Positions 1,928 through 64,000 of a DNA stretch of 64,000 nucleotides are shown piece by piece. Both the position numbers and the translations under genes were made by a program. The notes under the pieces were generated by a model, which saw nothing but the letters and a program-made list of their open reading frames with translations, did not search any database and was not told where the DNA came from. Source of the DNA: a virus (taxonomy: Duplodnaviria; Caudoviricetes); the IMG/VR virus record IMGVR_UViG_3300014205_000173; one strand, written 5' to 3'. Position 1 is the stretch's first letter; each line of letters begins with the position of its first letter.

Positions 1928-2935
1928 TTAACAGTGTTTACATAAAAGATTTTGTCTTTTAAATCCTATAAATTCTTTTCTTAAGTTTTGTATTTCTTCA
2001 CCATTCCATATTTCTTGCAATGTATTCCTGTGTGTATTACCAACGTTTATTTTCCCTTCCACATCTTTACAGCATACCGTAACATCACCATTTGCTTGTA
2101 CGATTAAATTTCTCCATGGAAAATCACAAACCAACTGATGTTGTCCTAATTGTTCTTTTGTTTTTCTATCACCTATCTGTGCAGCCCAATCATCAACATC
2201 TTTAATATATACTAAGATTTTTTCACTAATTTCCCTTCTCGAATGTCCTTTTTCGTATTCTTCGTAATATATTTTTATAAACTCATCTATATCTTTTTTT
2301 GTAAACTTCTTGCCAATTTCTGTCCAAACTTTTTGTAAAAAAACTTCTAAAAAATTGTTTACCTTTTGTGGATTTTCATTCTTTTCTATAAGCCCAATAG
2401 TGCCAAACTTTTCTGGTATCCAATTATATATTGCTTGAATAATTAGCTCTGGTTTATTTTTTTTTCTAGTATGTTCCCTAAGTATCCAATGAAAATTTTG
2501 ACATAGTTTTTCATATGATCCTCCAATTCTTATTTTTTCATAATCTTCTTTTGAAAAAGCATCTAAAGATAAAACTATTTTATCTTTTTCATCCAACATA
2601 CTTATCCATGTGCATATTTGATCTTCAGTTAAGGCTAATAAGTTCGTGCTAAAATGTATTTCTATTCCAATGTTTTTACAATAACCAATCATTCCTAGTG
2701 CATTTTTATGAACAAAAGATTCTCCAAAAAAATAAAAATTAAGTCTTGTTTTACTACCAAAAATCTTTATTTGATCAGCAATGTCTTTAAAGTGTTTAAA
2801 GTCCATGTTGAAATTTTTTCTTTCCATATCTTTCAACGGACACATAACACATTTTAGATTACATATGTTAGTGTTTTCTAGAAATATTATTTCTGGAGGA
2901 TTGTTTGTTATTAACTGATCTGTTCTAAATGTCAT
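1928..2935 (-). CDS. Radical SAM protein with C-terminal SPASM/twitch domain
   Basis: CNLKCVMC motif; FGES; C-terminal CDFPW..GDVTVCC..GN..LQEIWN..CKHC. Confidence 0.92.
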   Translation of the reverse strand: MTFRTDQLITNNPPEIIFLENTNICNLKCVMCPLKDMERKNFNMDFKHFKDIADQIKIFGSKTRLNFYFFGESFVHKNALGMIGYCKNIGIEIHFSTNLLALTEDQICTWISMLDEKDKIVLSLDAFSKEDYEKIRIGGSYEKLCQNFHWILREHTRKKNKPELIIQAIYNWIPEKFGTIGLIEKNENPQKVNNFLEVFLQKVWTEIGKKFTKKDIDEFIKIYYEEYEKGHSRREISEKILVYIKDVDDWAAQIGDRKTKEQLGQHQLVCDFPWRNLIVQANGDVTVCCKDVEGKINVGNTHRNTLQEIWNGEEIQNLRKEFIGFKRQNLLCKHC

Positions 2936-3978
2936 TTACTTTTATTCTGAATGATAATTTCTTTTTTTAATTCACTTTGAGAATAAGCCCTTAATTCTCT
3001 AGCATCAAATTTTTTTACTAGATCAATATATGCTTTTGTGTCTTGCATATATCTTTTAGAATATCCATCTGGAGGTGTTATCGTTGTTGTTAGCTCAACT
3101 TTAACTCCTAGTTCTTTACTTTTTTTATATAAAAAATCCAAACTACTATCACTATCACACCACTTAAATAAAATATATTTCCAAAGAACTTCTGGACCTA
3201 CCTGCATTTTGCTTCTCAAAGAACATAAAATTTCCATATTTTTCTTTACTTTTTCCCAGCATCTTAATTTGTAGTATTCGTAAAACTCTTCATCATTTGT
3301 TCCATAAATTGCCATTTCTATTCTGTTAATACCACACTCTAAAAATTTTTTAGCCTTTTCTTCACTATCAACATACCACATATTTGTGCAAGATGTTATA
3401 AATACGTTTGGAAGTTTTTCTCTAATTCTTCTTACAAAATCAAAAAACTTAGGATGAGCCAAAGACTCTCCTTGACCATATGTAACGACAGTTTTAGTGT
3501 CATCTGTTAATCCGTTTAAAAATTTCTCAAATATATCCTCACTCATATCCAATCTCTTTAAAACAGTTTCCGGAGAACGAGTTCTATGGCACTCACTGCA
3601 CTTATAAACACACTTTGTTGTTAATTCTAATTGGACGTATTTTGGGCTTCTTAAATTATTTAAAGACGAAAATATTTCTGATGGATTATCAAAAGAATTT
3701 TTATATAAATTAATGTTATATTTTAACGGACATTTAGAGCATGTTTCCAAATATCTTCCTTCTTGATTTATAAAATTATTTCTTAATTCTTTATAGTTTT
3801 TTCCATTCCATAAATCTTCAAAAGAATCAAAATCCTTTAAAAAACCCATGCTCATTATTCTTTTACCGTTTTCATCAAACCAAAGTTCTGGCAAACAATG
3901 ACAAATAACTTCTCCATCACATAAAATATGTGTATGCATAAACGGTCTATCACAAAAAATACTGTTCTTATATTGCAT
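2932..3978 (-). CDS. Radical SAM protein with N-terminal SPASM/twitch domain
   Basis: N-terminal CDRPF..DGEVICHC..FEDLWNG..ELR..CSKC, followed by CVYKCSEC and GQGESLAHP. Confidence 0.88.
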   Translation of the reverse strand: MQYKNSIFCDRPFMHTHILCDGEVICHCLPELWFDENGKRIMSMGFLKDFDSFEDLWNGKNYKELRNNFINQEGRYLETCSKCPLKYNINLYKNSFDNPSEIFSSLNNLRSPKYVQLELTTKCVYKCSECHRTRSPETVLKRLDMSEDIFEKFLNGLTDDTKTVVTYGQGESLAHPKFFDFVRRIREKLPNVFITSCTNMWYVDSEEKAKKFLECGINRIEMAIYGTNDEEFYEYYKLRCWEKVKKNMEILCSLRSKMQVGPEVLWKYILFKWCDSDSSLDFLYKKSKELGVKVELTTTITPPDGYSKRYMQDTKAYIDLVKKFDARELRAYSQSELKKEIIIQNKSK

Positions 3979-4816
3979 TTTTAAAAGTTCCTTGAAATAT
4001 TATTTTATCTTTGTTAAAAATATCTTTATTAAAAATATTTTTTTCAATAAAACATTTTATTAAACTAAAAAAAAGTTTATGCCCATCTCCATTTAAGTGA
4101 GCTACATCAAACGTAAAACCACCCCTTTTAAGTTCCATCATATCTTTGGTTTCCAAAAATAAAATATTTTTATTCTTACAAAATTTTTTTATTATCCTAA
4201 AATGACTTTTACTAAAATCATCTAGCGAAACATGCGCTATGTACCTATACAAAAGAACTACGGGAATTATATTTTTATTTTTTAAATATTCACAAAACTC
4301 AAATAAAACTTCTACTGATTTACTTATCATTTCATGACTTTTGTTAATATATTCATATTCACTTATTACATCTTCTTCACTAACTATCCATTTATTTTTA
4401 TCTGAAAATTTAGAAGCAAAAATACTTCCATATTCAGAACAATGGTGAATCCTTATATCTTCCATTAATTCTGGCAAAGGTTGTCTTATATAATCTGGAA
4501 CTTGAATCATTACATATTTTATATTGTTGTAAAATTTTTCATAACACTTAAACCATTCAAAACAATTTTTTATACCAAAAGAACTTCTTCCCATATTTAT
4601 AAATTCTATTTTTTTATTTTTATAATGTTCAGAAAGAAGTTTTGTAAAATCATTGCTTCCATCTGGGACATATCCATAGGTTATTGAACATCCAACACAT
4701 ACGAACTTATCCCAAGTATCATTTTCTACAGGATATTTTGAACCACAAAAATTAAAATCATTACAATGATTTGGAAATCCAAGTTGATCTTTTATGAAAT
4801 TATTATTTAATTTCAT
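3968..4816 (-). CDS. SGNH/GDSL-fold esterase or acyltransferase-like protein
   Basis: GCSITYG (block I), INMGRSSFG (block II), DVAHLNGDGH (DxxH, block V). Confidence 0.75.
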   Translation of the reverse strand: MKLNNNFIKDQLGFPNHCNDFNFCGSKYPVENDTWDKFVCVGCSITYGYVPDGSNDFTKLLSEHYKNKKIEFINMGRSSFGIKNCFEWFKCYEKFYNNIKYVMIQVPDYIRQPLPELMEDIRIHHCSEYGSIFASKFSDKNKWIVSEEDVISEYEYINKSHEMISKSVEVLFEFCEYLKNKNIIPVVLLYRYIAHVSLDDFSKSHFRIIKKFCKNKNILFLETKDMMELKRGGFTFDVAHLNGDGHKLFFSLIKCFIEKNIFNKDIFNKDKIIFQGTFKNAI

Positions 4817-4917
4817 TTAAATTTACCAAAGTGGATAAATGTTTTTACTATTTTCTTTTTTAAAAATAGATTTAACTTTAAATTTCATATATACATACAA
4901 GCAAAATATTTTTTTTA

Positions 4918-5907
4918 TCATTTTTCATTTAACTCATAGTCTACCATCGTTTTAACTAGATCTTTAAATGAAACTTTTGGTTCCCACTTAAGTTTATTTT
5001 TTGCTTTTGAAAAATCCCCAACAAGTAGATTTTCTTCTTTGGGTCTCATAAATTTAATATTTTGTTCAATATATTTCATATAATCAGCAATACCAACATG
5101 AAGAAATGCTTCTCTCAGAAAATCATTTACTGTATGAGTTTCTCCTGTTGCAATGACATAATCATCAGGACTAGATTGTTGCAGCATTAGCCACATTGAC
5201 TCACAAAAATCTCCTGCATATCCCCAATCTCTTGAAGACTCAATATTGCCCAATAATATTTTTGGGACGTTACTATCTCCATATTTTTGAATATGTTTAA
5301 AAATATTTACAACACCAGTTGATATTTTTTTTGTTACAAAATCAGAACCTCTCCTACTTGATTCATGGTTGTACATTATACCATTACAACAAAACATTCC
5401 ATAAAAATCCCTATAGTTAACAACTGCATAATGAGCGGCTGTTTTGGCTACTCCGTATGGATTTCTTGGATTTATTTTAGTTTTTTCATTTTGTGGAGAA
5501 TCAGTTACATTACCAAATATTTCACTTGAAGATGCCTGATAAACCTTTATGTCTTTTTTAACCACTCTTACTGCTTCAAGACAATTAAAGCATCCCTTTG
5601 CAACTACGTCAAACGTTAATAACGGTTGATTCCAAGACTCTCCAACAAAACTCATTGCAGCTAAGTTATAAAGTTCATCTGGCTCTGCTGTTTCTATTGA
5701 GTTTATTAATGAAGACATATCCGTAACGTCTCCATATAATATTTTAAAATTACTATTGTTTAAAATACCTTTTATTCTTTGCAAATTATCATTAGATGTT
5801 TTCCTTGCAATTCCATAGACCAAATAGCCTTTGTTTAAAAGAAATTCGGCTAAATATGAACCATCTTGCCCCACAACCCCAGTTATTAATGCTGTTTTTT
5901 TATACAT
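4918..5907 (-). CDS. gmd: GDP-mannose 4,6-dehydratase
   Basis: ALITGVVGQDGSYLAEFLL, YNLAAMSFV, YQASSSE, PYGVAK, NHESSRRG, RDWGYAGD, DDYVIATG. Confidence 0.97.
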   Translation of the reverse strand: MYKKTALITGVVGQDGSYLAEFLLNKGYLVYGIARKTSNDNLQRIKGILNNSNFKILYGDVTDMSSLINSIETAEPDELYNLAAMSFVGESWNQPLLTFDVVAKGCFNCLEAVRVVKKDIKVYQASSSEIFGNVTDSPQNEKTKINPRNPYGVAKTAAHYAVVNYRDFYGMFCCNGIMYNHESSRRGSDFVTKKISTGVVNIFKHIQKYGDSNVPKILLGNIESSRDWGYAGDFCESMWLMLQQSSPDDYVIATGETHTVNDFLREAFLHVGIADYMKYIEQNIKFMRPKEENLLVGDFSKAKNKLKWEPKVSFKDLVKTMVDYELNEK

Positions 5908-5925
5908 TTTTTAACGCTTCCTTTA

Positions 5926-6714
5926 TTAATTGATACTTTCCATAAACTTAACACTTTCAATTATTTTTTCAGGAGTCGGATTCCAACCATTTTCAGTCAA
6001 ATATTTAACTTTTACATTAAATGGATTCCAATCATTTATATACCTATTTTCCAAATGATCACTACCCCAAACCAACTGAGGGCATTCACAAAGTGTTGCA
6101 AAATGCATAAGACCAGCAGACGGACCTATTATCATTTTACTAGAAGATAAAATATTAGAAACCATTTCAATTCCAATATCCATACGATCTATTGTTCCGT
6201 CTATATATTCTGAAGACTCTCTTAAACCTAATGAAGTTACTGTATATCCCATATTCAATATACAATCAACAGTCTCTCTACATTTTTTTAAATTCCAGTT
6301 CCTTTCTCTTTTTGTATAAACACCCTCATTAAATCTTCTTGCACAAATACAAATATTTTTATCTTTAACAATATTTTTATTGTATGAAATAAATTTTTGT
6401 TTCATTTGTTTGTTAAATGTATTTAAATGGGTTTTTAAATCTAAAACTCTTATCACTCTTGTAGGACTATACTCTTCGTGTATATTTGGTACGTTATTGT
6501 GTCCTATACATTCATATCCATCACAGTTAGTAGAATTTGTATCATATGGAATAAATTTTGTACAAAAATCTTTATAAATAAATTCGTACATACTTCTACT
6601 TGAAATAATTACTTCGTCATAGTCTTTTGCTATTTCACGAAGATATCCTTGCCATTCAAATAGCTCCATTCCAAATTCACCAATAAATGGTCCTGCAAAA
6701 AGTTTTTTCCCCAT
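5926..6714 (-). CDS. GT-B glycosyltransferase, GT9-like; paralogue of 15852..16670
   Basis: GPFIGEFGMEL N-terminus; IIGPSAGLMHFATLCECP motif; start moved to ATG 6714 by alignment with the paralogue and adjacency to the upstream stop. Confidence 0.7.
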   Translation of the reverse strand: MGKKLFAGPFIGEFGMELFEWQGYLREIAKDYDEVIISSRSMYEFIYKDFCTKFIPYDTNSTNCDGYECIGHNNVPNIHEEYSPTRVIRVLDLKTHLNTFNKQMKQKFISYNKNIVKDKNICICARRFNEGVYTKRERNWNLKKCRETVDCILNMGYTVTSLGLRESSEYIDGTIDRMDIGIEMVSNILSSSKMIIGPSAGLMHFATLCECPQLVWGSDHLENRYINDWNPFNVKVKYLTENGWNPTPEKIIESVKFMESIN

Positions 6715-6715
6715 T

Positions 6716-7513
6716 TTACTGACACAAAGCACAAATTCCAAATGACTCATACTTTCTCATAACATCACGCTCCTTAATCAGCATTCTATCAACCTTTTTC
6801 TTACATACCGGACAATCATTTTTTGTTCTTCTAATAAGAACTTGTTTGTTCTCTTCATCTAAAGGTAATTTTAATAAAATATCTAAATCTTCTTCATGCC
6901 AAAGTCCAACAATGCTAGGATCAATCTTTCCTGACCTTAATAGATTTATAAAATTAACTATATGATCATGGTATGTATTTTCTGATTTTATGCTAACTAT
7001 TTTAGCACCATCATTTTTTGAATTTACAGTTTCAAAACCCCATACAGATGTATTTGTATTTAGGTATTTCATAAAATAATCAGTCTTCCAAATAGCAGTG
7101 TGTATGCTCGTTCTATATTCAGAATCTTGATTTATCAATAAAACATTATCGTGAAATGGAGCAGAATACACATTAAGATGAGCATGAAGCATTGCCTTGT
7201 CCGCACCATTCTTTATTTCATTCTCCATAATTTTTAATTCATCTAATTTTACATATTCAAATAAAAAATGATCTTCTAAGTGCATTACAAAATATTCGTC
7301 TTTAAAACACGAAAAAAATTTTCTTAAGTTCGTAGTCCAATATCCTGAATCTTTACCTAAAGATATTATTTCAAAATTACTTGGTAATTTAATTGGAATC
7401 TTATTAAAGCATAAAATAATACACTCTTGATTTTTCCAATATTTATTGAATAACTCACAAAAAACAGGAATTATATACTGATATTTATCTGATACCGGAA
7501 TTACTACTTTCAT
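6716..7513 (-). CDS. Putative GT-A glycosyltransferase with a C-terminal CxxC...CxxC zinc-ribbon-like tail
   Basis: MKVVIPVSDKY start; HLEDHFL acidic motif; AIWK..SVWGFE; tail CPVC-x24-CALC. Confidence 0.6.
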   Translation of the reverse strand: MKVVIPVSDKYQYIIPVFCELFNKYWKNQECIILCFNKIPIKLPSNFEIISLGKDSGYWTTNLRKFFSCFKDEYFVMHLEDHFLFEYVKLDELKIMENEIKNGADKAMLHAHLNVYSAPFHDNVLLINQDSEYRTSIHTAIWKTDYFMKYLNTNTSVWGFETVNSKNDGAKIVSIKSENTYHDHIVNFINLLRSGKIDPSIVGLWHEEDLDILLKLPLDEENKQVLIRRTKNDCPVCKKKVDRMLIKERDVMRKYESFGICALCQ

Positions 7514-7533
7514 TTTTATTTTCCTTAATATTA

Positions 7534-8184
7534 TTACCTACTTACATATAATTCGTTTGATTTTACGTTCTGTTCTTCTACTTTAAATTTATGAAATGAA
7601 AATCCCAAACTATAAAGTTTTTTCAAAAGTATATCTTGTTCTTTTTTTTCAAAGTGTATTTCCATAGAAATTTGACTTATTTTTTTTGCAGTTTCTTCGT
7701 TCATGTCGGTAACAATATCATACTCAGTTCCTTCTGTGTCTAACTTCAAATAGTCTATACTATCTATTTTTAAAAAATTTAACAGACTATTTATCTTCAA
7801 TGTTTTTACCTTGTATTTTATTGTTTTAATAAATTCTGAATCGTGCATCAAATAATTTTCATATAGCCCTTTTACATTGCCCCACTCTTTAAACTTATTG
7901 TTATTAGAAACTACTTCCATAAACTCAATTTCTTCTTCTTCATGCTCTCCAACTAACGCATTTTCATAATAGGTAATTATTTTGTTGTTATTTTTTTCTA
8001 AAAATTTAAAATTTGATTTACAACACTCAAAACCATATAAACGATAATCAGTCCCACTTAAATATGGAGTTAAACTTTCATTTAACTCACCCATACACGC
8101 ACCGCCATCAACAATAATAAACTTAGACTTAATTTTATCAATATCAATATAGTGTCCAAATACTTGTTTTATATTTTTATTCAT
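7534..8184 (-). CDS. FkbM-family methyltransferase
   Basis: IVDGGACMG, YGFEC, ENAL, IDYLKLDTEGTEYDI, QISMEIH. Confidence 0.88.
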   Translation of the reverse strand: MNKNIKQVFGHYIDIDKIKSKFIIVDGGACMGELNESLTPYLSGTDYRLYGFECCKSNFKFLEKNNNKIITYYENALVGEHEEEEIEFMEVVSNNNKFKEWGNVKGLYENYLMHDSEFIKTIKYKVKTLKINSLLNFLKIDSIDYLKLDTEGTEYDIVTDMNEETAKKISQISMEIHFEKKEQDILLKKLYSLGFSFHKFKVEEQNVKSNELYVSR

Positions 8185-9430
8185 AATTTACTTCTTGCTG
8201 TCTTTCGCACATTATATGCTTATACTTTTCTTTTAGTCTTTTTTGATGATCTTTTAATTGATTATTCGTAAAATGATCAGTATTCCAAAAATCATTAGAA
8301 TATTCGTCTGTATTTTTCCAATCAATATTCTTATATTTTTCTGGATTTTTTGCATAAATAGCGCATCCGGGATATGGGCAAAGAATTGTAAAACCAACAA
8401 AATCTGGTTTTATTTCATCAATTAATGACTCGGTTAAAGAAATATCTTCTTCCGTTTCATTTGGCATTCCAAGAATAAAAAAACCTCTTCTATAAATTCC
8501 AATATCTTTAGCCCATTTAAAGGCTCTTTTTAAAATTACAGTATTAACACCCTTACCTACATCTTTTAATATTTTGTCACTCCCGCTTTCACAACCTATA
8601 TTTATTTGATTACATCCACTTTTTTTCATCCAGTAAAACATTTCTTCTGTTGCAAAAGAAGCATGTATTAATGCTTCCCATTTTGTATCAATACCATACT
8701 CTATCTTTTTTTTACAAAATTCTATTACATAATCAGCAGAATTGTCAAAAGTTGCATCAACAAATTTAAAATAATCTAAATTATATTCTTTAGAAACATA
8801 AAGAATTTCTTTACACAAATCATCAATATCTCTTCTTCTTATTGGATTTGTTTTACTATTAAATTTACCTGTCATTATTTTTTCTGAGCAGAAAAAGCAG
8901 GACACAGGGCATCCTCTACTTGCCTGAAAACTAGCAGTTCTCTTCCCGTTTATACTTTGACACAAGGCAATTGTTCTTTCGTTTTTTATTGCCTTTCTAT
9001 CAGGAAATGCAAGCTCTTCAAAATTCATTTTCCTTCCTAAAACAACTTTATCTCTATTACCATTTAATATATCTAAAATTGCCGCTTCTCCCTCGCCAAC
9101 AACAACTTGATCTACACCGTCAATTAATGCCTCTCTATTAACAGAAGTAGTATGCCATCCACCGAAAACACTTATAACTTTTTTGTTTTTTAATTTAATT
9201 TGTCTTGAAAGGTTTACCCCATGACTAAAACAAGGAGAGGTACATGAAATAAAAATAAAATCAGAATCTAAAGATCCATTTATAATTTCTTCATCAGTAT
9301 CAAAGTTTGCATGAAAGAAATTGATATCAATTTCTTTTTTATACTCTTTTTTTACATAAGAAATTAAATATGCAAAACCCAAACACTCCCATGTATTATG
9401 ATAATATGGTTGAATGAAAGTTATTTTCAT
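8177..9430 (-). CDS. Cobalamin-binding radical SAM protein (class B methyltransferase-like)
   Basis: LGFAYL, GGWHTT and VVGEGE B12-binding-domain motifs; ASRGCPVSCFFC; GCESGS; FILGMPNET; PYPG. Confidence 0.92.
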   Translation of the reverse strand: MKITFIQPYYHNTWECLGFAYLISYVKKEYKKEIDINFFHANFDTDEEIINGSLDSDFIFISCTSPCFSHGVNLSRQIKLKNKKVISVFGGWHTTSVNREALIDGVDQVVVGEGEAAILDILNGNRDKVVLGRKMNFEELAFPDRKAIKNERTIALCQSINGKRTASFQASRGCPVSCFFCSEKIMTGKFNSKTNPIRRRDIDDLCKEILYVSKEYNLDYFKFVDATFDNSADYVIEFCKKKIEYGIDTKWEALIHASFATEEMFYWMKKSGCNQINIGCESGSDKILKDVGKGVNTVILKRAFKWAKDIGIYRRGFFILGMPNETEEDISLTESLIDEIKPDFVGFTILCPYPGCAIYAKNPEKYKNIDWKNTDEYSNDFWNTDHFTNNQLKDHQKRLKEKYKHIMCERQQEVNYE

Positions 9431-10458
9431 TTTTTTAAATATCCTATTTTTTCCATATAATTTTTTCCAGGAGCCTTTTTCTTTAGATAAGATTCTACTG
9501 TTGTATTTATTATATCTATAAGTGTATCTTGAGCTTTAATTATATTTGGATGTGTTGGAAGAGGCAAAATATGATCATATACATAATCTGTATTCGGCAA
9601 ACCAAAAACTAAAGGTTCGTAATAAACTTTTGATTCAAATCCATTTTCAACAAACGCATTTGCTACAGCATTTCTCATGCCATTACTGTCTAACAAAATA
9701 GCATAAACACTATGATTTGTGTTTTTTAAAACCTTTTGTTCCTTAAAACTAAAATTTAATTTATTTCTATATTTTTCAATAATACCACCATGAACATTCT
9801 TATATTCATTGTCGTAATATTCTATAGATTTCTTTGCAATAAAAGCATTTATTTCAGACATTCTACCAGAAAGTCTTCTAAGTTCTGTTGCTGTTTCTGC
9901 AACAGAGTCATTTTGGGTTAAAATCATTCCACCTTCAGTTGCAGTTACTATTTTTGTAAAAGACAAAGAAACAACTTCGACAACACCTCTATGTCCTAGT
10001 TTTGGTAAATCAAAACCATGCGCAGCATCAATTATTGTTGGAATTTTTTTACAAGAATCTGATTGATTTCCAAAAATATCAACAGGAATAGCAACGTCGC
10101 AATGCTCTTCATCTACATTTTCCATTAACCATGTATCTTTATTTATATCGCAAAAAACTGGAGCATTTCCCAAACAAGATTCCAATGCATAGAGAGTGCT
10201 AGGCCAAGTAAATGCAGGGAGAGCTATTTTTTTATTTGAAAAACCACAAGATTTAATAGATATTATTAATCCAGTAGTTGCATTTGAACATGCAATTGCA
10301 TGTTTCACATTAAATCTTGATTTAAATATAGACTCCAATTCATTCATATGTTTACCAATACTAACCCAACCACTATTAAGTATATTTTCTATCTCGCTAT
10401 AGTCTTCTTTTTTTAAAACTATATTTGGTGTAGAAAAACCATATTTGAAATTATTCAT
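9427..10458 (-). CDS. DegT/DnrJ/EryC1/StrS PLP-dependent nucleotide-sugar aminotransferase (Lys-type)
   Basis: SNATTGL, PAFTWPST, IIDAAHG, SLSFTKIVTATEGG (catalytic Lys), RMSEINA, LPLPTHP. Confidence 0.9.
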   Translation of the reverse strand: MNNFKYGFSTPNIVLKKEDYSEIENILNSGWVSIGKHMNELESIFKSRFNVKHAIACSNATTGLIISIKSCGFSNKKIALPAFTWPSTLYALESCLGNAPVFCDINKDTWLMENVDEEHCDVAIPVDIFGNQSDSCKKIPTIIDAAHGFDLPKLGHRGVVEVVSLSFTKIVTATEGGMILTQNDSVAETATELRRLSGRMSEINAFIAKKSIEYYDNEYKNVHGGIIEKYRNKLNFSFKEQKVLKNTNHSVYAILLDSNGMRNAVANAFVENGFESKVYYEPLVFGLPNTDYVYDHILPLPTHPNIIKAQDTLIDIINTTVESYLKKKAPGKNYMEKIGYLKK

Positions 10459-11632: not shown

Positions 11633-11648
11633 AAAAAATACTCCGTTT

Positions 11649-12002
11649 TTAAGTAAACCCTTTATATAACTTTATATTTGGTTCAGAAAAATTTTTATGA
11701 TGATTTTTATCTATATAGTTATCTAGGAAAAAATTTATTGCCCTTATTAACTTTGGTCTTCTATCTTTAAAACAATAATCAATTTTTCTTTTTAATTCAG
11801 CTACTTCACTATCTGTATTTGCTTCAGATACTGCATCTTCAAGCTTCCAAGTTCTTATATGTAGTACAATAAATCTATCTAATATCTCAGCGAAACTTTC
11901 ACTAAATTCAAGCCCATCAATAGAAAGAGGCTCGTTCTCAAATCTTTCGCTTATTTCTTCAAGAAGTAATTCGCTTATTTTTAAAATTCTATTTTCAGAC
12001 AT
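11649..12002 (-). CDS. DUF4254-like helical protein
   Basis: ESFAEILDRFIVLHIRTWKLED...KRKID...R..LI..IN pattern; context inside a glycan cluster. Confidence 0.6.
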   Translation of the reverse strand: MSENRILKISELLLEEISERFENEPLSIDGLEFSESFAEILDRFIVLHIRTWKLEDAVSEANTDSEVAELKRKIDYCFKDRRPKLIRAINFFLDNYIDKNHHKNFSEPNIKLYKGFT

Positions 12003-12004
12003 TT

Positions 12005-13591: not shown

Positions 13592-13640
13592 AAGTTTATA
13601 ATATTCCTATATGTCGTAGTCTTGGGTTTCAATTTTTTCC

Positions 13641-14579: not shown

Positions 14580-14593
14580 ATTTTTCTCCTTGT

Positions 14594-17707: not shown

Positions 17708-17716
17708 CAGAATCTC

Positions 17717-20141: not shown

Positions 20142-20147
20142 TAAGAA

Positions 20148-22263: not shown

Positions 22264-22299
22264 ATTATATGTTAGTCTCCTAAAAGTCCTAATTTCATT

Positions 22300-24779: not shown

Positions 24780-24790
24780 AAAGTTCCTTT

Positions 24791-57000: not shown

Positions 57001-57632
57001 GAACTTTCACTTCCACTCTGAGCTTTTATGTTTATAGAATTGTCTCTATAGTCATAGTATATATAGAGACCGGGTTGCCCATCACGATCAATATGCCTAT
57101 CTTTAACAGAAACACTATCGTATAATCTTTCTGTGTATATGTAGGGGGAAGAAAGATCATTTAAAGATGTTGATAGCTTCCCAAGTGGAGATTTTGTTAA
57201 TGCGGATATATTCCTAATTACTGGAACCTTAGAATCTACTCTAACTAATCCATTTTCTGCCCAATCACTCCATTCTCTTGCAAGGGTTCCCTGCGTTCTA
57301 ATTCTCCAAACAAAGATACCATCTTCTGTTATTTCAGAACTTAAATCTAATGTTATTTGTTGTGAATTTCCAGAACCACTATATTCATAATAGTCATAAT
57401 TAGAGTTATCCAAATTAAAGGATTCCAACACCGTCTCTATTTCTTCCCTAGAGTTAATTTTTAATTTTATAACCTGTATTTGATATAAATATTGAACATC
57501 CTCTCCATTATATTTCCAAACAAAAGAGATATTTTTACCATTAGACCAATGATAATCGTTTTGTGGAGAAACTATTGTAGGAGTTCTACTTTTAATAATA
57601 AAGAAGGATACATTAGTTTGCTTTGAAATCAC
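51060..57632 (-). CDS. Large putative virion structural protein (2190 aa): N-terminal FN3/Ig-like, PA14-like domain, C-terminal beta-sandwich pair
   Basis: GTG start with AAGGAG SD; PTIVSP..FVW..YQIQV..WRIR..WSDW; GSFYIPKDGTYIF..VYLIRGWH; YIS.VFDGG..W..ISW..P.GT.V.FEVRTG. Confidence 0.72.
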   Translation of the reverse strand: MISKQTNVSFFIIKSRTPTIVSPQNDYHWSNGKNISFVWKYNGEDVQYLYQIQVIKLKINSREEIETVLESFNLDNSNYDYYEYSGSGNSQQITLDLSSEITEDGIFVWRIRTQGTLAREWSDWAENGLVRVDSKVPVIRNISALTKSPLGKLSTSLNDLSSPYIYTERLYDSVSVKDRHIDRDGQPGLYIYYDYRDNSINIKAQSGSESSKRYYGLISFHKNATSLTEILGSGSSRVYDSKYSIQNLVRSVYQYSVNKEESSLGPFDDVSADQIVNGKKIFPTLNLILNSADYDDGDSQTVNFVPQGLPTFISNSVYNNQGFSNHPIGFESTENFISTFPAYSRRFKKRTYKFPDETESVTFNSIVGEEYVEVRYPSPYQDFFLIFKKTGTNSNVVDLVAYGQYKDEDEVKKIMVNPSGSITDYTFLPRRGFSVIQNRNNQKKPNDSNNLLFDPSNTTLYTRSNLGVVNHENYSGTLTEDMVYYISPFSYQMFFNLNPTFSKDQALKIYLKEETLQLVEYQKNLKNEGVDPVIQVSYPYVEFNFRPDSDCTSVFTTENNLGSDISLDEVFIGRARVSPRDLFMYEDSPSQKTIYEDIKIHYEDKVKTVTGWGNTELNFNSDITKYNGSVRLHISEFEYIPYYSYGTAYNNLTKNPIPNIYNADPNPNPDNTINWDSIEIKSARVDDSEKDLVILEDLIYTNDFLRFNNTSKFLGQINPYLYNMFKWNSRPENGNIFGKGKILKHRTFANNGVTKTDLNYLNCGYTMYEDGWSSELTYPVSYNQTDRGFFAVADIEDGDVGKKIFLKDFSNHIFQRSIAIDIEDSFSELQQVLDKIYPSTHLSHDRTFVWEGNDIQTENVEITGENGPSWIFNLQEGDDKAEFIQSLISEDYSTQGLFKNISWARTSTIGVSGLYLTVLSSELINEQIDRSVFGYDSLQKESLFLRSEIQNNSLPSGVESYISGDTFELGNIFGFIYPDSDNVVKFSFDVDESTSGIDSIKFLEVDIPVELASGDLESQVSSEHFFGIKTDGVPSKVPIKIQKLNEYAYNYDLNFSSISEDIFSEIRTSRSPIDAVEYYMDNSPDIEYVSMNNSDVLDIETSRTDYGFKRFTHSISVSGGGFKILFFKVKDKAGNESEVYSVPFYIQGSQTISPANVIESATIVADDRLLISKELKTVLSNSYEFWTNLLPTDTKNNRTIVVKDVLVGDNLGGLINHPYVNDLLIGFSDNYGLSYNVYSPYSSIVGWNFKRPISIKVKGFSSGYKGPDWFFDPNDVRHYIPDTAEDYSQGVGENNNIVNVQNFHIPVNPGSTPRTLIGFLDENTENYARSNPVAKEIYNNREEFIGKSLIIGSAQDFSFKILDVFRSNNLSPSIRFDSNGLQTDDYSADSDGGTTISSVLRQKIWILIEDEEGIAATILSRKFQYITEDIEEINFITKSGTGWRDSLKDSFDTENRTVKFGYYPVEDEIPSSVNSIINDSLKITKNITADVDSLVSGDNQTPTAIVGTSDEYIYIDPAEFDDTSSGISSNEGWTTRIYQGYSHIGFISTPQTILDQVQHHQLLGINFYNKLVFGQNYTVSAKIFKVFYDSSLDESYVVLHESGIDYTMRNLSYSIVDSLGNNISLGSIDNEIKNISIDGDLLVVSGDISTILNVDSEYLPDDSYVFNVVVDGLDGIDDSTGLEFDRGWWPKIDGLPIPPIDQKIGSSMSLWNEFNIKFALVSTGSFYIPKDGTYIFKIEKDLYSYSDFSIDFFGKDVERYVEEDGEYVKKITSIYFNSTSGETEKEKEVYLIRGWHTARLRNLTENTFSEESYKNYLRLLYSKPGWEDSDGNYFFVPLVGSNNEDMNFMSRAYRSVFGRIIDKDYSRFPKQDWEVDPEENYIIEEKLLKAVVGFKESPTAEEITSYYNYQAIKIDRDSGDDSRPTISSTIPAETRPTYAGEILEEAQATYISNVFDGGSDFRFWKEISWTSSKPTGTTVEFEVRTGSSEEDLLLKTWNNIGTETVTEILDPFTISGQELVDFSQLSVDNNNNLILKRFIQFKIILKSSIKDVTPTVDDVTITYSKQNSVNFFTTTFNLTSNIVRSILTYNGDIPTSPSGVALSDIQFGISTEEDVNGKVITNFDEYTIIPTNEVFSLSSIGVQSNNKFRIGIRFISTDGSIPSVDEMAILFETDGERDQVKDLIDRVDNG

Positions 57633-58597
57633 AGGTCTTCTCCTTCGTTAAACGCATACGATGCAACCGTTAGATTAAAAACTACTTCAGAATAAATTTT
57701 TTGTTCTCCACTGGAAGCGATTGTTAAGTTTCCATCATCAATTTCAGGAGCTTCATAAATCATCGCAGAAACCGTTCTTCCACCACTTCCAGTTAGATTT
57801 CTTGATACTTGTGGAGTTTGTCTATTTAGCTGAGTTTCTTTTCCCCACCCATCAATTTGATTTAAAGAAATATCTTTGTTTATAGAAACCTCAACAGAAG
57901 AATATCCATCAGAATCTGTTTCTAGTGAACTTGGATTTATTATAACTCCCGGAGACCCCCAAAAAAATACCCTTACATTTCCCTGAGGAATACTATCTTT
58001 CAAAACTCTTGCCCTAACAACAATTGTATCAATAGAATTTGCGAAAACAAAATTTGCATACTCATAACCCCAACCATAAGAGTATGAGGATTCGAAGTTT
58101 GTAACATTTGAAGGACTTTCATCATCCTTATATCCATATCCTAAAAGATTTCCAGAAAGACCTATAACATTAAAATAATCTAGGCTGGGAGCATTTGGAT
58201 TTGAAAACTGACACTGACTACTTGTTGCCGAAATACTTACAGAATGCCCGGTTACAGAAACTTCTATTTGTCCTGTATCTGGGTTGTATGAAGAAACTAC
58301 ACCACTAATTGTTTCAGCTTCATCTATTGCATCTACTGTAATTATATTACCAACTTCCCAACCTAATCCTAACTCAATAAAACCAGTAATATTCCCAGAA
58401 AAAGAAGGTGTTAATGATGTAATATCTATATCACAAAATCCAGATCCATGAACCCCAACAATTGTAAAGTTACTTGTAGTTCCATACCCATATCCATAAA
58501 ACCCTTCATCTATTGTTTCTAGCTGTAGCTCCCACCTTGAAAAAACAGAAGAAGTTTGAGTTGTTAATATAAGGAGTTCTTGTTCTGCTATTGCCAT
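57629..58597 (-). CDS. Putative virion protein (322 aa): split YG module, tail-fibre-like beta domain, Big-1/Ig-like domain
   Basis: GGAG SD; YGYGYG then later LDYFNV..GYGY..YSYGWGYEY; GVVSSYNPDTGQIEVSV; ARVLKDSIPQGNVRVFF..TDSDG. Confidence 0.72.
   Translation of the reverse strand: MAIAEQELLILTTQTSSVFSRWELQLETIDEGFYGYGYGTTSNFTIVGVHGSGFCDIDITSLTPSFSGNITGFIELGLGWEVGNIITVDAIDEAETISGVVSSYNPDTGQIEVSVTGHSVSISATSSQCQFSNPNAPSLDYFNVIGLSGNLLGYGYKDDESPSNVTNFESSYSYGWGYEYANFVFANSIDTIVVRARVLKDSIPQGNVRVFFWGSPGVIINPSSLETDSDGYSSVEVSINKDISLNQIDGWGKETQLNRQTPQVSRNLTGSGGRTVSAMIYEAPEIDDGNLTIASSGEQKIYSEVVFNLTVASYAFNEGEDL
58058..58498 (-). repeat. YG module copy D, split by a ~100-aa insertion
   Basis: YGYGYG at 58481-58498; LDYFNV-IGLSGNLL-GYGY..SYSYGWGYEY at 58058-58183. 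Confidence 0.8.
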
Positions 58598-58609
58598 ACA
58601 AAAAACTCC

Positions 58610-61600
58610 TTAGATCACAAAAGATGATAGTCTAATATTCCAATTAACTAAAGATTGAGGTGTTATGTGATCTCCATCAGAATCAACCAACGGAGTATAA
58701 ACCTTAAACCCATTCATCCTTATTGTATTAGTACCTGAATTTAAAACAGTAACCCTTACCTTTTGAATATTTTTTAATGGGAAATCTATATTTAAAGGTC
58801 TTTCTATTAGTCCAAGCCCCATTGTAATATTGTCTGAGAAATATCCATCCTCATCCATTTGTGTGTTTACAGAAATATTTCCATCATAATCAGTAACAAT
58901 ACTATCTGAAGAAGATCCAAATATTGTTAGTGTTTTGTCTCCAAAAGCATTTGGTCTAAACGAATGTCTTGATAACTGATTTTGTGAAAAGTTTGTAGAA
59001 AAATTAGAACTATGATTATTTAATATAAATTCAATTAAATCTGAACTAAATCCCTCTTCAGATAAAAATTCACTGTTGGCTTCTTCTGAATCCAAAATTC
59101 TAACGTCTACAATCCTAGACTCATTTTTACTTCTTGGAATCCACCTAACTAAAGCATATTCATAATTCAAAATATTTCCAACATATATTGTTTCCCAAGT
59201 ATCTGTGCTATCAGTAACCTCAACTCTTACCGTTCTTGTGTTCTCTGAATTTGTAATATTCATACTTATTCTATTTATAGGTATCTCTTCTCCTAAATTC
59301 ATTGTAACAGAAGAGTTAGCTCCTTTAAATGACGCAAACGCAGAAGAGTTTGTTGTATATCCTTCAATTATACCTTTCAAATCATCTACAATAATAAGTT
59401 CTGGATTATATACGCTTCCCGTGGTTGTAAATGTATTATCAACATCCTGAATGAATGTTTTAAATTTTAAATTATTTAATCTTAAAATTAATCCAGAACT
59501 TACTTTAATTCTTATAGCTTTTGTATACACAGAGAGTCCAGAAAGTGAAACTGTTTCATCTCTATCAGAATCAAAAATCACATCTCCTATAGAAACCCAA
59601 TCACTATCAGAATATAAATCCCTACTATAGATTTGTTTTTCAAATATTGGAATTATTGAGAAGTTAAATGAGGATAAATCATCTGCATTATAATCGGTTC
59701 CGTCGTAATATGCATTAAACCCTATCTTACTGATGTAAATTGGTTTTGGAAAAATAACATAAATATACCCAACCGAAGAAAGATAAACTCCGCCATTTAT
59801 ATTTTCTGTTAAAATATTTTCAACGTTAGCTAGTGATCCTTGAGATTGTACATTTCTATGATAAATTCCACTAACAACAATATCTTTATCTGTTGTTAAA
59901 CTTGTTTCTTTTGCGCCAGAAAAATCAACATCTGTAAACCTTAATCCCTTAACAATAACTTCAGCAAATGGCGACTTAATAGACTTCACAGTATCATAAG
60001 TAACATAGTCATAGCTTACCAAAGGAAATGCATTGTCTTTAATTAATTTAGTACTTTCTAGTCTAAAAAAGTTAGATTGAAGATCTGTTGGTAATGATTT
60101 ACTAAATAACATTATCTTTTCAAATAAGCCTACATCAACTATTCTCTCTTGAGCAATTGGTATTGTTATTGACTCTGGATCTGTAAATAATTCTTCTAAT
60201 GTTTCTGCATGTTTTAAAGTTAATGTTGTTTGTGTTGGATCAACTAAAAGGTCTGGTAAATTAATTTCACCAACTTCTAAGTCTTCTACATTTTTAATTT
60301 CAACAGGACTAAATGCCGTTTCTCTTAAATTATACATCATTGAAATATTCTGTGGAAGTTTATCTCCAACAGTCAATCTCGTTATATGTCTTTTTGGAAT
60401 GTTTGAATCTATCAAGTTAGTTTCCAACGAACTTGTTGTAACTCTTTCTTTTTCAATTTTCATTTCTGTTAAAAATGTAACTCTTCCAGCTTGAGAAATG
60501 TCAACCTTAAATGTATTTACTTCCTCAAGGGTTGAAAATCCGGGCAAAGCTCTTTCGTAAGAAGGTTTATCTATATCGAAATTATATGTGTTTATTCCTA
60601 TTCTACTGCCTTCTGCATTTATTGTAGTTTCGCTAGTTGAAACTCCAGCAGAAGAACCCGCAAAAACCCTTGTTAGCCCCCAATCTTTTGGATGTTGTTT
60701 ATACCCATAAGTTTTATAAACTTGAGCACCTCTATTATCGTTGTCCGAAACTAAATAGCAAATTCCACCTTGAGAAACAAGTCTTGGATTTCTATTATAA
60801 AGATCATTTTCTATTGTTCCTCCAACTTGTGGTGCTTGGCTACCAAGTAAATCTGGAGAGCCTCCAACCATCCAACAATACTTTCCAATTCTTGGATTCT
60901 CTCTTCCAATATTTAATGCAGGATAGTCCCTTAATAATGTTGAAGATTCAAAGAAATCATATTTACTTAAAGTTTTATGATGATAAACCCCCCACTTACT
61001 TCCCAAAAACTCCATTGATTTGTATGGAGCAACAACCAATCCCCTATCACCATCACCCTCCCACTGATTTACAGGAGTAGTTGGGCTTGAAATAAAATCA
61101 TCTGCATTATCATCTATCTTATACGAAGTATCATCATAAAACTCAAAAGCATTATTAAGTGTTCTTCTGTCATACATTATCCATCTAATTCCATGATCAA
61201 AATAATCATAATTAGATATAAGTGCAGTAACATTTTCCTCATCAACACCAGAAAGATAAACGTAATTTCCGATAGTTACACCACTAGTAAATTTACTTAT
61301 TTTAAAGCTTCTTGTGTAAAACTGATTTGATTCTATAAACTCAGGAAGAAATCTTGTTCTCACTAATCCAGAGGTTATAAGATCTGACAAGGCAGGTCCA
61401 TCTGCTGTAATAAGTTTTCTTATTGCAACATATCTTGTTCCAGTAGGTGTTCCATCGTCATTAAAAATAGTTCCTTTTTCATAAGGAAAAACTAATGCAG
61501 CACTTGCATCAACTTCACTTCCACCATTGTCATCTAAGTCAAAATAAACATCTTCTTCATAGGTAAACCAAATTGGAAATTTTCTTAAAACCTTTGTTCT

Positions 61601-64000
61601 TCCAAAACTAATATCATGGGCTATGTGAAATGGTGTTCTATAGTCAGAAAGACCATCATATTTTCCAGAAGATGAAGTCCAAACATGCAATATTTTTTCA
61701 ACTAGCTCCATATATACTACACGATCAGGAGCCTTAAACGAAACCAAACTTCCACTAACGCTCGTTTCGTCAACCGCACACTCTGTATATCCAACAAGCC
61801 AATCCTGACTTATGTTTCCATCAATAACTTCATCAAATGTTAATAGGTTGTTTGTTTTATATACTTCTGCCATACTAGGTTTAAATGCAGTAGAAATAAG
61901 CCAATAGTTATTTGCATAATCTGTTGCGAACACTGCTGTTGGCTTATGCTCTTGCAAACACATATATGTATTTCCACCGCTAGATACATAGTCTCCGAAT
62001 TGATATGTGTTTGACGCAACTCCATTATGTGCAAAGTATGTTTGTGTTGAATTTTCAGCAGAAGTTTGAGTTAGTGCTGTTGCTGTTCCAAAATATAAAG
62101 TATCATACACACTTAAAATAGAAGTTATCTCATATTCGTGTTCAAGACTTGGATCGAATCCTCTACCGTCTAGCCCACCTAAAATTCCTATCCATACTAA
62201 ATCTCCAGCACTATATGCATCTTCCAAAACTGGTTGAACTCCACCAGAGGCACATCTGTAAACATGTCCATCATACTTTATTAAATCTCCCAACAAGTAT
62301 GGTAAGCCATCCCACTCTTCAACAATTCTTGTTGCTGATGATCTTGCGTGCATTTGTCTTGTAAAGGCAGATGTTTGAACCAAAGAAGCTTTAACTAATG
62401 ATGTTCTAAAATCTAAACTATTTGCAATAGTTGAAATATTTAATTTCCATATACCAAACTTCGAAATAGCATCAGGAGAACCATATCTTGCATCACCATT
62501 ATAGCTATTTGAATTTCTTCTATTATTTAATATAGTAAAATATAAATATCCATTTTCTCCAATAGAGTTCCCTATAAATTTCGCTGCCTTGTAGTCTGAA
62601 TCTATATTTGGATAAACTCTTTTGTTGTCAGACGCAAAATCTGGACTAACCCCCAGCGATGAAGAATCTATAACCCTCGCCTCAAATCTTCCATCATAAG
62701 GATCTTCATTTTCAATTCTTACTACTCTAAAATTCACTGTACTTGGAGCAGTATCTTGAGAAAAGTCAGAAAAAGAAACAATTAAATTACAGAATGGTCT
62801 GCATGGTCTAATTACATCATTTTCCCCAGTTGTATATTCATCAAGGTGTTTTGGAAAAACCTGCATTAAAGCAAATAAAGAATCCCCTTCAAGCGTTTGA
62901 GCAACAGTAGTTTCGTGAATTCCAATATATCTATTTGTATATGATGTATTTGGGTTCCCTAGTACAGCAACATTTGTATAGACCCCTCTTTCATCAGTAT
63001 TTGTTACATCATATGGATCATAATCTGATGTAACTTCAATATCTATAAAAGACCAATCGTTTGGAGAGTCAACGCTAGATATTATACCCTTAAAGGTCAT
63101 TTTAGGAGATGAACCTGAATAGTACGGAACAGAAGTATACCAGCTAGTATCATTTGTTTGATATTTAGGGAATCCAATATAATATTTCCCAATTTTAGTT
63201 ATATTATTATAACCACGAATAAATCTATCTTGATCACTTGTAGATGGTATCGTAACATAGTCTAAAATCTCTACCTCATCTCCCGGCTTTTCTAGTGAAA
63301 AATCTATATATGATGGGTTTGAGCTTGTGGTTGGAACTCTATTCCCATCATCATCAACATCAGAGTATTTCATTTCTGCGAAATGCGCCCAATACTCCAA
63401 AGAAGATCTATTTGAAGTATCGTCTATAATCCCTCTTTCATATTCTATTCTATGTTTATCTTCTTCATATCCGTCATAAATACTTACAACTCCAATCTTT
63501 TTATATTCAGTATCCATATATGCATCTGGCAAATACGGTTTAGGAATTGGAGGTAATCTATCTGGCTGAACAAAAACAATAAAACTAGCATTTTCATCAA
63601 GTGTAGGGCTTGCATTTATAGTTTTGTTATAAAAAGCTTTTCCAGAAAGAGGAAGTGTGCCTTCCTTGAAATAATAAAACCTCATCATTGACTGATCTGT
63701 TTCTTCGCTTGTTCCGTTAGCAGAATTAGTAGGAGGTTCTTGAAAAAATTGAACTGAAATATCATTTGTTATAGAAGATTCTTTTTCAACATAAAGAAAT
63801 GTAGAATAACCCCTTCTTGCAGAAGCTCCGGTTCCACCTAAGCTTACAGAACCAGAATCAAAATCACTAACGCTATCAACTTCCTTTCCGGTAAATCCAA
63901 GAACAAAACACCCTGTTCTTAAGCTACCAGAAGAAGATGTTGGAACTAATTCATTAGACCAATCTTCTGTTGATGTTTTTGCTAAAAAAATAGGGAATAT
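58610..64000 (-). CDS. Large putative virion/receptor-binding protein, 5'-truncated by the window (>=1796 aa), with CBM5/12-like and discoidin-like domains
   Basis: The frame of the track ORF stays open for 104 codons upstream of 63688, to base 64000; WDGLPYLLGDLIKYDGHVYRC; YQFGDYVSSGGNTYMCLQEH; VTMNLGEEIPINRI..TWET. Confidence 0.75.
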   Translation of the reverse strand: MFPIFLAKTSTEDWSNELVPTSSSGSLRTGCFVLGFTGKEVDSVSDFDSGSVSLGGTGASARRGYSTFLYVEKESSITNDISVQFFQEPPTNSANGTSEETDQSMMRFYYFKEGTLPLSGKAFYNKTINASPTLDENASFIVFVQPDRLPPIPKPYLPDAYMDTEYKKIGVVSIYDGYEEDKHRIEYERGIIDDTSNRSSLEYWAHFAEMKYSDVDDDGNRVPTTSSNPSYIDFSLEKPGDEVEILDYVTIPSTSDQDRFIRGYNNITKIGKYYIGFPKYQTNDTSWYTSVPYYSGSSPKMTFKGIISSVDSPNDWSFIDIEVTSDYDPYDVTNTDERGVYTNVAVLGNPNTSYTNRYIGIHETTVAQTLEGDSLFALMQVFPKHLDEYTTGENDVIRPCRPFCNLIVSFSDFSQDTAPSTVNFRVVRIENEDPYDGRFEARVIDSSSLGVSPDFASDNKRVYPNIDSDYKAAKFIGNSIGENGYLYFTILNNRRNSNSYNGDARYGSPDAISKFGIWKLNISTIANSLDFRTSLVKASLVQTSAFTRQMHARSSATRIVEEWDGLPYLLGDLIKYDGHVYRCASGGVQPVLEDAYSAGDLVWIGILGGLDGRGFDPSLEHEYEITSILSVYDTLYFGTATALTQTSAENSTQTYFAHNGVASNTYQFGDYVSSGGNTYMCLQEHKPTAVFATDYANNYWLISTAFKPSMAEVYKTNNLLTFDEVIDGNISQDWLVGYTECAVDETSVSGSLVSFKAPDRVVYMELVEKILHVWTSSSGKYDGLSDYRTPFHIAHDISFGRTKVLRKFPIWFTYEEDVYFDLDDNGGSEVDASAALVFPYEKGTIFNDDGTPTGTRYVAIRKLITADGPALSDLITSGLVRTRFLPEFIESNQFYTRSFKISKFTSGVTIGNYVYLSGVDEENVTALISNYDYFDHGIRWIMYDRRTLNNAFEFYDDTSYKIDDNADDFISSPTTPVNQWEGDGDRGLVVAPYKSMEFLGSKWGVYHHKTLSKYDFFESSTLLRDYPALNIGRENPRIGKYCWMVGGSPDLLGSQAPQVGGTIENDLYNRNPRLVSQGGICYLVSDNDNRGAQVYKTYGYKQHPKDWGLTRVFAGSSAGVSTSETTINAEGSRIGINTYNFDIDKPSYERALPGFSTLEEVNTFKVDISQAGRVTFLTEMKIEKERVTTSSLETNLIDSNIPKRHITRLTVGDKLPQNISMMYNLRETAFSPVEIKNVEDLEVGEINLPDLLVDPTQTTLTLKHAETLEELFTDPESITIPIAQERIVDVGLFEKIMLFSKSLPTDLQSNFFRLESTKLIKDNAFPLVSYDYVTYDTVKSIKSPFAEVIVKGLRFTDVDFSGAKETSLTTDKDIVVSGIYHRNVQSQGSLANVENILTENINGGVYLSSVGYIYVIFPKPIYISKIGFNAYYDGTDYNADDLSSFNFSIIPIFEKQIYSRDLYSDSDWVSIGDVIFDSDRDETVSLSGLSVYTKAIRIKVSSGLILRLNNLKFKTFIQDVDNTFTTTGSVYNPELIIVDDLKGIIEGYTTNSSAFASFKGANSSVTMNLGEEIPINRISMNITNSENTRTVRVEVTDSTDTWETIYVGNILNYEYALVRWIPRSKNESRIVDVRILDSEEANSEFLSEEGFSSDLIEFILNNHSSNFSTNFSQNQLSRHSFRPNAFGDKTLTIFGSSSDSIVTDYDGNISVNTQMDEDGYFSDNITMGLGLIERPLNIDFPLKNIQKVRVTVLNSGTNTIRMNGFKVYTPLVDSDGDHITPQSLVNWNIRLSSFVI

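Follow-up and report, generated by a model that had tools for sequence, protein, structure and literature searches.

Soluble glycosylation cassette packed behind giant tail-appendage genes in a clade of huge uncultured phages, a candidate for virion glycosylation

The stretch of DNA analyzed here, 64,000 nucleotides of the IMG/VR virus record IMGVR_UViG_3300014205_000173 (Duplodnaviria; Caudoviricetes), is part of a 287,662-bp contig of an uncultured phage and is referred to below as the window. We found that five genes coding for mostly giant proteins (A–E) run directly into a cassette of glycosyltransferase (GT), sugar-nucleotide, methyltransferase and radical S-adenosylmethionine (SAM) genes, and that this arrangement is conserved among related phages. 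The best explanation of genes A–E is that they encode the distal tail (tip and appendage) of a ~288-kb phage. We suggest, tentatively, that the cassette may act late in infection to glycosylate phage structural proteins stepwise in the cytoplasm, the neighboring appendage proteins being the first candidates.

The giant block consists of five co-oriented genes whose products range from 322 to 6299 aa, and the B/C, C/D and D/E junctions each overlap by 4 bases. E is separated from the first GT gene by an 11-bp gap (24780-24790), and the 24 cassette genes then occupy 22.85 kb (1928-24779) with overlaps or gaps of at most 49 bp at all junctions except one, a 101-bp gap at 4817-4917. The open reading frame map thus agrees with a preliminary description, made from the letters of the window, of five giants leading into a co-oriented cassette. 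All 29 genes share one orientation, and the open reading frames of at least 100 aa that cover the window are all on the minus strand, with GC contents of 26-34%. The GC content at third codon positions is 0.14-0.22 in giants and cassette alike, the single value of 0.38 being an artefact of a frameshifted gene, and this uniformity rules out a recent horizontal import of the cassette. Promoter and terminator scans gave chance-level results only and are uninformative on transcription units.

We compared the window with seven relatives, namely six metagenome contigs (L001-L006) and one IMG/VR virus record (G001; 140,188 bp, 42% complete by CheckV), the latter missed by IMG/VR scans with B and with the alignment of E and recovered by a DNA pattern. 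The order D, E, GT4, GT4, GT4, GT4-like, Glyco_trans_1_2, methyltransferase, GT2 is kept in 7/7 of them as far as the contigs reach, at E identities of 33-63%, so that the linkage of giants to GTs proposed from the window holds in every readable relative. In G001, A-like, B-like, C, D and E genes follow one another in the same order, and upstream on the same strand lie a head-tail adaptor (phrog_195, E 9e-7) and a minor tail protein (phrog_290, E 1e-9); G001 has no Pfam match for tape measure, sheath or Sipho_tail. Behind the GT core, G001 encodes methyltransferases, GT2 proteins, a PseB/CapD-like dehydratase and an RmlD-like reductase, and then a thymidylate kinase. Its 140 kb contain no GDP-mannose 4,6-dehydratase (GMD), ColD-type enzyme or radical SAM gene, and the variable middle part of the window's cassette (11649..17707) has no orthologs there. 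The outer layer therefore varies behind a common GT core, with GMD, ColD-type, DegT and radical SAM enzymes in the window versus PseB/CapD-like and RmlD-like enzymes in G001. Judged from gene content and order, the cassette is a clade-conserved seven-gene GT/methyltransferase core joined to a swappable, putative sugar-supply module.

Homing elements are found at the start of this core. A GIY-YIG/NUMOD3 homing endonuclease gene stands between E and the first GT4 in two relatives (L001:9693-10493 and L003:7480-8433), where the window has its 11-bp gap. In L001 the first GT4 itself (L001:10504-13107) carries a LAGLIDADG intein (Cys1 ... HN/Cys+1) exactly inside the EX7E motif (GEGL/C...VHN/CIPTLE, with slashes at the intein boundaries), and the enzyme is thus conserved enough to host an intein inside its catalytic motif. 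The viral relatives, with the tail genes of G001, these homing elements, and the fact that a back-translated DNA pattern of the Tyr-Gly/DYF module of the giant proteins (described below) has no match in 185,579 species (cellular) genomes rule out a cellular chromosome, an origin that the preliminary description had still allowed for. Relatives of single core genes also occur farther away. An unrelated huge phage (L025, IMGVR_UViG_3300025930_000007; 266,490 bp, 56% GC, 92% complete) has relatives of the first GT4, Glyco_trans_1_2 and Methyltransf_11 proteins (29-37% identity) within ~6 kb, and the record contains no Tyr-Gly module.

Domains in the cassette were called at Pfam cut-offs, and weaker hints were counted apart as sub-threshold. 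Eight GTs pass these cut-offs or are clearly of GT-B or GT-A type (five GT4, one of them weak, two Glyco_trans_1_2 and one GT2). Another four to five proteins show only sub-threshold GT8-, GT9- or heptosyltransferase-like hints, and the ~13 GTs counted originally are an upper estimate. The best solved relative of the first GT4 is the chlorovirus GT PBCV-1 B736L, a weak match (E 5e-4). The third GT4 is split by a frameshift in a nine-T run (~22201-22209), yet homology to intact orthologs spans the break (query 18-367 of the L004 protein), and L003 and G001 have it joined to the preceding GT4 in a single protein of ~1000 aa. Possible causes of the frameshift are an assembly error in the homopolymer and a programmed slip, or the gene may be a pseudogene. 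Two of the three SAM methyltransferases described earlier, Methyltransf_11 and FkbM, are clear and the third domain is weak; similarly, the SGNH protein shows its motifs by eye but reaches a Pfam E-value of 0.05 only, the GDSL hint being sub-threshold.

The number of GTs bears on the idea that they glycosylate modified bases of the phage genome. Phage GT clusters that put mono- to trisaccharides on 5-hydroxymethylcytosine do exist and can adjoin structural genes (10.1101/2023.12.21.572611). We nevertheless consider DNA hypermodification extremely improbable here, as the defining cytosine methyltransferase and 5mYOX/TET domains were not found in the cassette, the 140 kb of G001 have no match to a Thymidylat_synt-type hydroxymethylase, and 8-13 GTs with a deoxy-amino-sugar pathway far exceed known DNA glycans.

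The cassette is soluble, as the preliminary description had it. No cassette or giant-block protein has a hydrophobic 19-residue segment, and there is no polyprenyl-phosphate/phosphoglycosyl transferase, flippase, polymerase, ligase or ABC exporter among the 24 genes. This gene content has to be weighed against the main rival explanation, in which the cassette builds or alters a glycan of the host envelope (lipopolysaccharide O-antigen, capsule or similar) by way of the host's carrier lipid and export. Its effect would be to block superinfection or to keep progeny from sticking to debris, and the adjacency to tail genes would be incidental. GMD, ColD-type and DegT proteins are well known from O-antigen sugar synthesis, the differences in sugar genes between relatives recall serotype loci, and a lipoprotein encoded just downstream of the cassette hints at a diderm host. 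Host-surface modification is also the published interpretation of comparable cyanophage clusters (PMC7824862, PMC12801897). Host genes could substitute for the initiating phosphoglycosyl transferase, the flippase, polymerase, ligase and ABC transporter, but the 24 genes lack all of these and any membrane segment, and in every relative the cassette is tightly packed into the structural gene array. Hence we regard remodeling of the host surface as unlikely.

The deoxy/amino-sugar enzymes noticed at first sight are well supported, with GMD at E 6e-112 and the larger of two DegT-family proteins matching the ColD structure PDB 2gms over its full length (E 2e-61). Its FGHH sequence aligns with SHH of 2gms, placing a His at the position of the aminotransferase Schiff-base Lys. 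The smaller DegT-family protein keeps the Lys and is thus a true aminotransferase. GDP-mannose would be converted by GMD to the 4-keto-6-deoxy sugar, by the ColD-type enzyme to the 3-deoxy form and by the DegT protein to the 4-amino form, and FkbM and the B12-binding radical SAM enzyme would then methylate the product before further radical SAM tailoring. In common with the colitose pathway (PDB 2gms, 3gr9), the window has GMD and a ColD relative that matches over its full length and carries His where the catalytic Lys would be. It differs in that the cassette has no ColC-type reductase and a Lys-bearing DegT aminotransferase follows instead, for which reason the end product is probably an amino-trideoxy or perosamine-like sugar and not colitose. 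A route that combines GMD, ColD-type and aminotransferase steps with B12-binding and twitch radical SAM enzymes may yield an undescribed sugar.

All three radical SAM proteins called in the preliminary description carry CxxxCxxC, one being B12-binding and two of the SPASM/twitch type. We read them as sugar-tailoring enzymes because their presence follows that of the sugar-nucleotide genes rather than that of the Tyr-Gly module: G001 has nine modules and no radical SAM gene in its 140 kb (42% complete), so the radical SAM genes are not tied to the module, which goes against RiPP-type peptide maturation acting on it. SPASM/twitch radical SAM enzymes often mature peptides, and clusters of radical SAM genes occur in another IMG/VR contig, which could point to a different product, either a soluble or lipid-linked glycoconjugate or a glycosylated secondary metabolite, with the radical SAM enzymes acting on a peptide or small molecule. 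This we consider highly improbable, since no precursor-peptide-like small open reading frame and no non-ribosomal peptide synthetase or polyketide synthase domain was seen, and sugar-directed chemistry is the simpler explanation for radical SAM genes that sit with GMD, ColD-type and DegT genes. BtrN, DesII and GenK are examples of such sugar-directed radical SAM chemistry. The contig just mentioned (L026, IMGVR_UViG_3300017752_002492; viral, 37% GC) contains a cluster of several twitch/SPASM and B12 radical SAM genes with distant similarity to the window's. At 1928-3978, the neighboring pair of radical SAM genes shows opposite layouts, the Cys domain being N-terminal in the upstream and C-terminal in the downstream protein. 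The twitch/SPASM-like N-terminal Cys domain of the upstream protein matches NCBIfam N_Twi_rSAM below the cut-off.

The giant proteins had been taken for fibers, and their domains suggest otherwise. Close relatives of A are 1936-2033 aa long, and its C-terminal 800 aa resemble two giants of G001. C has a full-length ortholog in G001 (34% identical). D has 11 Asp-box motifs versus about one expected by chance, and its orthologs occur in L001, L002, L004 and G001. E combines Asp-box propellers, which resemble GH74 and BT4663-type propellers, with a VWA domain (residues 670-870) that has an invariant DxSGS metal site (680-684) and with a DUF3604/PHP-like segment near residue 1757 that is present in all orthologs. 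VWA and DUF3604/PHP-like domains in one protein are an unusual pairing for a phage appendage. There is no significant PHROG, Pfam or PDB sequence match between the giants and tail fiber, baseplate, Dit or Tal families, and sequence searches (tblastn of cultured phages, PHROGs, PDB, ESM Atlas) found nothing outside the clade. These propeller-, VWA- and PHP-containing giants are thus multi-domain, propeller-rich and probably carbohydrate-facing appendage proteins rather than simple fibers.

B, D and E share a tyrosine-dense module, in line with the preliminary description, which saw one in three giant-block proteins. This Tyr-Gly module spans ~50 aa with the pattern (YG)3-4 .. LDYF[DN]V .. GYG .. 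(YG)2-3[FY]E and is present in four copies, two in E (residues 132-183 and 465-516), one in D (1011-1059) and one in B (33-39 and 138-181), where the ~100-aa insert falls between the first strand and the remainder. The domain E-values of 1e-12 to 4e-22 are far beyond chance. Across ten E orthologs (33-63% identity) the module keeps several Gly, Tyr and Glu residues without change, its identity is 48-53% versus 41% for the whole protein, and copy 2 is missing in two of the ten. A nine-copy profile of the module retrieved 52 proteins at E <=1e-3 among 1.84 billion representative proteins. They comprise giants of the E-like and D-like types, further giants of 2.9-4.5 thousand residues, ~1.4-thousand-residue proteins, and a B-like family of 160-330 aa in which the module lies close to the N-terminus and an Ig-like domain comes after it. 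AlphaFold2 models of E residues 1-640 and of a B-like protein show each module as three strands with pLDDT values of 25-49. Copy 2 of E is predicted as an insert in an Asp-box β-propeller, and the model of the B-like relative has good confidence for the Ig-like domain but not for the module.

The preliminary description had proposed the module as a possible site of glycan attachment, that is, an acceptor tag, where the proximal GT4 enzymes would attach O-glycans to Tyr in its (YG)n strands. In favor of this, the module occurs only in tail proteins of the clade (the 52 representatives), the GT core follows every E ortholog that was readable, and low AlphaFold2 confidence would suit an exposed element. 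One cassette protein has a weak GT8-like hint, and glycogenin, an enzyme that glucosylates Tyr, is a GT8 enzyme. Against this, nothing specific was found that marks the module as an acceptor, and the E orthologs, for all their divergence, keep the same three-strand layout and the same Gly, Tyr and Glu positions, which points to a folded element. The position of the module inside propellers, the 100-aa domain that it accommodates in B and the absence of copy 2 from some orthologs also fit such an element better; a module better conserved than its protein argues in the same direction. Moreover, the co-occurrence of module and GTs stems from one synteny and not from independent events, and the module is absent from the 266-kb phage (L025) in which three core genes have distant relatives. 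We therefore think it quite unlikely that the module is an acceptor. It is more likely a small clade-specific β insert in propeller-rich tail proteins, with a structural, docking, adhesive or glycan-binding role.

Returning to glycosylation of phage structural proteins, we base this reading on GTs that are all soluble, on the lack of export genes, on giants in which no signal peptide was found, on the tight packing in relatives, and on a conserved core with a variable outer layer. Tail genes would run without a break in packing into a cytoplasmic glycan-building cassette, in which the seven-gene core would build the glycan and the strain-variable part would make and tailor the donor sugars. 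The virion would then bear a glycan coat that differs from one related phage to another, comparable to the glycans of mimivirus fibrils and of mycobacteriophage capsids and tails. Several points weigh against this. The virion target is deduced from gene content and order, and none of the observations places a glycan on the giant proteins, as the preliminary description had proposed, or directly shows a modified protein. The giants A-E lack a Ser/Thr-rich acceptor tract of the kind known from heavily O-glycosylated adhesins. Gene order in a late region is kept whether or not neighbors cooperate, which makes adjacency weak evidence of a shared pathway, and the late-operon context was read from the relative G001. 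The host-surface interpretation of similar large cyanophage clusters (PMC7824862, PMC12801897) also counts here. For these reasons we keep our confidence in virion protein glycosylation a little below even. Very unlikely is the fuller combination, in which a clade of ~290-330-kb phages would use a late cytoplasmic pathway of 13-24 genes, with a conserved GT core and a swappable rare-sugar module including radical SAM enzymes, to place a strain-specific methylated deoxy-amino glycan on a >13,000-aa tail tip with the Tyr-Gly module as the site of Tyr-O-glycosylation. If true, a bacterial virus would for the first time have a sequon-like glycosylation tag, and its virion glycosylation would be the most elaborate of any bacterial virus.

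Among viruses, the system resembles the fibril glycosylation clusters of Megavirinae (mimivirus), which comprise 6-33 genes with clade-specific content (Notaro et al. 2022; PMC10117803). They too combine virus-encoded nucleotide-sugar pathways for rare bacterial-type amino and deoxy sugars with soluble GTs, and are thought to coat large surface fibrils (PMC10117803). However, these are giant viruses of eukaryotes whose glycans and target proteins have been shown chemically, whereas the system described here belongs to a tailed phage, with the appendage proteins as candidate targets; the window also differs in its sugar route from GDP-mannose and its radical SAM enzymes. Among tailed phages, mycobacteriophages are reported to glycosylate structural proteins with their own cytoplasmic GTs (Freeman et al. 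2023, as cited in PMC12619734 and PMC12801897). In those phages, whose hosts belong to a different phylum, a few GTs reportedly act on the C-termini of capsid and tail-tube subunits, and neither a sugar-nucleotide pathway nor giant appendage proteins are known to be involved. Cyanophage 'LPS' or cell-wall clusters are closer in scale, with 15 genes in P-SSM2 (PMC7824862) and 22 genes including 13 GTs in S-SCSM2R (PMC12801897), and the claim that the window's cassette is much larger than the loci known from tailed phages is therefore overstated. They are likewise rich in nucleoside diphosphate-sugar enzymes and GT families and polymorphic between related phages, but no ColD-type dehydratase or radical SAM set has been reported in them (PMC7824862, PMC12801897). 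They belong to T4-like myoviruses, their published interpretation is modification of the host surface, and no fixed continuity with tail-fiber genes is described for them.

A cellular parallel is provided by the serine-rich-repeat adhesins of Gram-positive cocci, in which GtfA/GtfB and accessory GTs build an O-glycan stepwise in the cytoplasm on giant fiber proteins encoded next to them. The likeness lies in soluble GT4-type enzymes beside the genes of very large surface proteins. The adhesins differ in having a long Ser-rich acceptor, which was not found here, and a dedicated SecA2/Y2 export in a cellular system. New in the phages described here are the fixed coupling of the cassette to a >13,000-aa tail-appendage block throughout a clade of uncultured huge phages, the combination of a constant core and a variable sugar module containing ColD-type and radical SAM chemistry, and the Tyr-Gly domain family. 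The latter, ~50 aa long and found only in giant phage tail proteins, is an object of study in its own right. If the glycan is on the virion, tailed phages may, like giant viruses, carry a large self-encoded glycosylation toolbox, and an outer layer that differs between close relatives would bear on host recognition, phage competition and evasion of anti-phage or immune recognition.

Table 1. Genes of the giant block and the cassette in the window, in order of transcription direction
Gene or product	Position	Strand	Part	Remarks
Giant A	58610..64000	-	giant block	>1795 aa, N-terminus beyond window end; weak CBM5/12-like and discoidin-like matches
B	57629..58597	-	giant block	322 aa; Tyr-Gly module split by ~100-aa insert, then Ig-like domain
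Giant C	51060..57632	-	giant block	2190 aa; no recognizable domains
Giant D	32164..51063	-	giant block	6299 aa; multi-propeller, Asp-box motifs, one Tyr-Gly module
Giant E	24791..32167	-	giant block	2458 aa; N-terminal β domain, two Tyr-Gly modules, Asp-box propeller, VWA, DUF3604/PHP-like
GT4, first of core	23478-24779	-	seven-gene core (17717..24779)	Pfam
GT4	22300-23484	-	seven-gene core	Pfam
GT4 with frameshift	21146-22263	-	seven-gene core	Pfam
GT4-like	20148-21164	-	seven-gene core	Pfam
Glyco_trans_1_2	19137-20141	-	seven-gene core	Pfam
Methyltransf_11	18539-19153	-	seven-gene core	Pfam
GT2	17717-18538	-	seven-gene core	Pfam; last of core
GT4	16667-17707	-	variable middle part (11649..17707)	first of this part
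Unknown	15852-16670	-	variable middle part	GT9-like hint
Unknown	14594-15862	-	variable middle part	weak methyltransferase domain
Glyco_trans_1_2	13641-14579	-	variable middle part
GT8-like	12917-13591	-	variable middle part	DxD motif; sub-threshold
Heptosyltransferase-like	12005-12916	-	variable middle part	sub-threshold
117-aa protein		-	variable middle part	last gene of this part
ColD-type 3-dehydratase	10451-11632	-	sugar-nucleotide/tailoring part (1928..11632)
DegT aminotransferase	9427-10458	-	sugar-nucleotide/tailoring part
B12-binding radical SAM	8177-9430	-	sugar-nucleotide/tailoring part
FkbM methyltransferase	7534-8184	-	sugar-nucleotide/tailoring part
Two unknowns	6716-7513 and 5926-6750	-	sugar-nucleotide/tailoring part
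GMD	4918-5907	-	sugar-nucleotide/tailoring part
SGNH-like protein	3968-4816	-	sugar-nucleotide/tailoring part	weak
Two twitch/SPASM radical SAM	2932-3978 and 1928-2935	-	sugar-nucleotide/tailoring part

Two of the unknown cassette proteins, those encoded at 15852-16670 and 5926-6750, are paralogs with 47% identity over 266 aa and have a faint GT9-like hint only. Beyond the cassette, the segment 81-1916 encodes a 163-aa lipoprotein, a 155-aa protein and two small proteins with multiple transmembrane segments (95 and 99 aa). The lipoprotein has the lipobox FVGC, a coiled-coil-like body and an amphipathic C-terminus. A lysis cassette with spanin-like and holin-like members is a possible reading of this segment, and it would point towards a diderm host. 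ARAGORN also places a tRNA-Trp (CCA) gene on the minus strand at 840-925, just downstream of the cassette.

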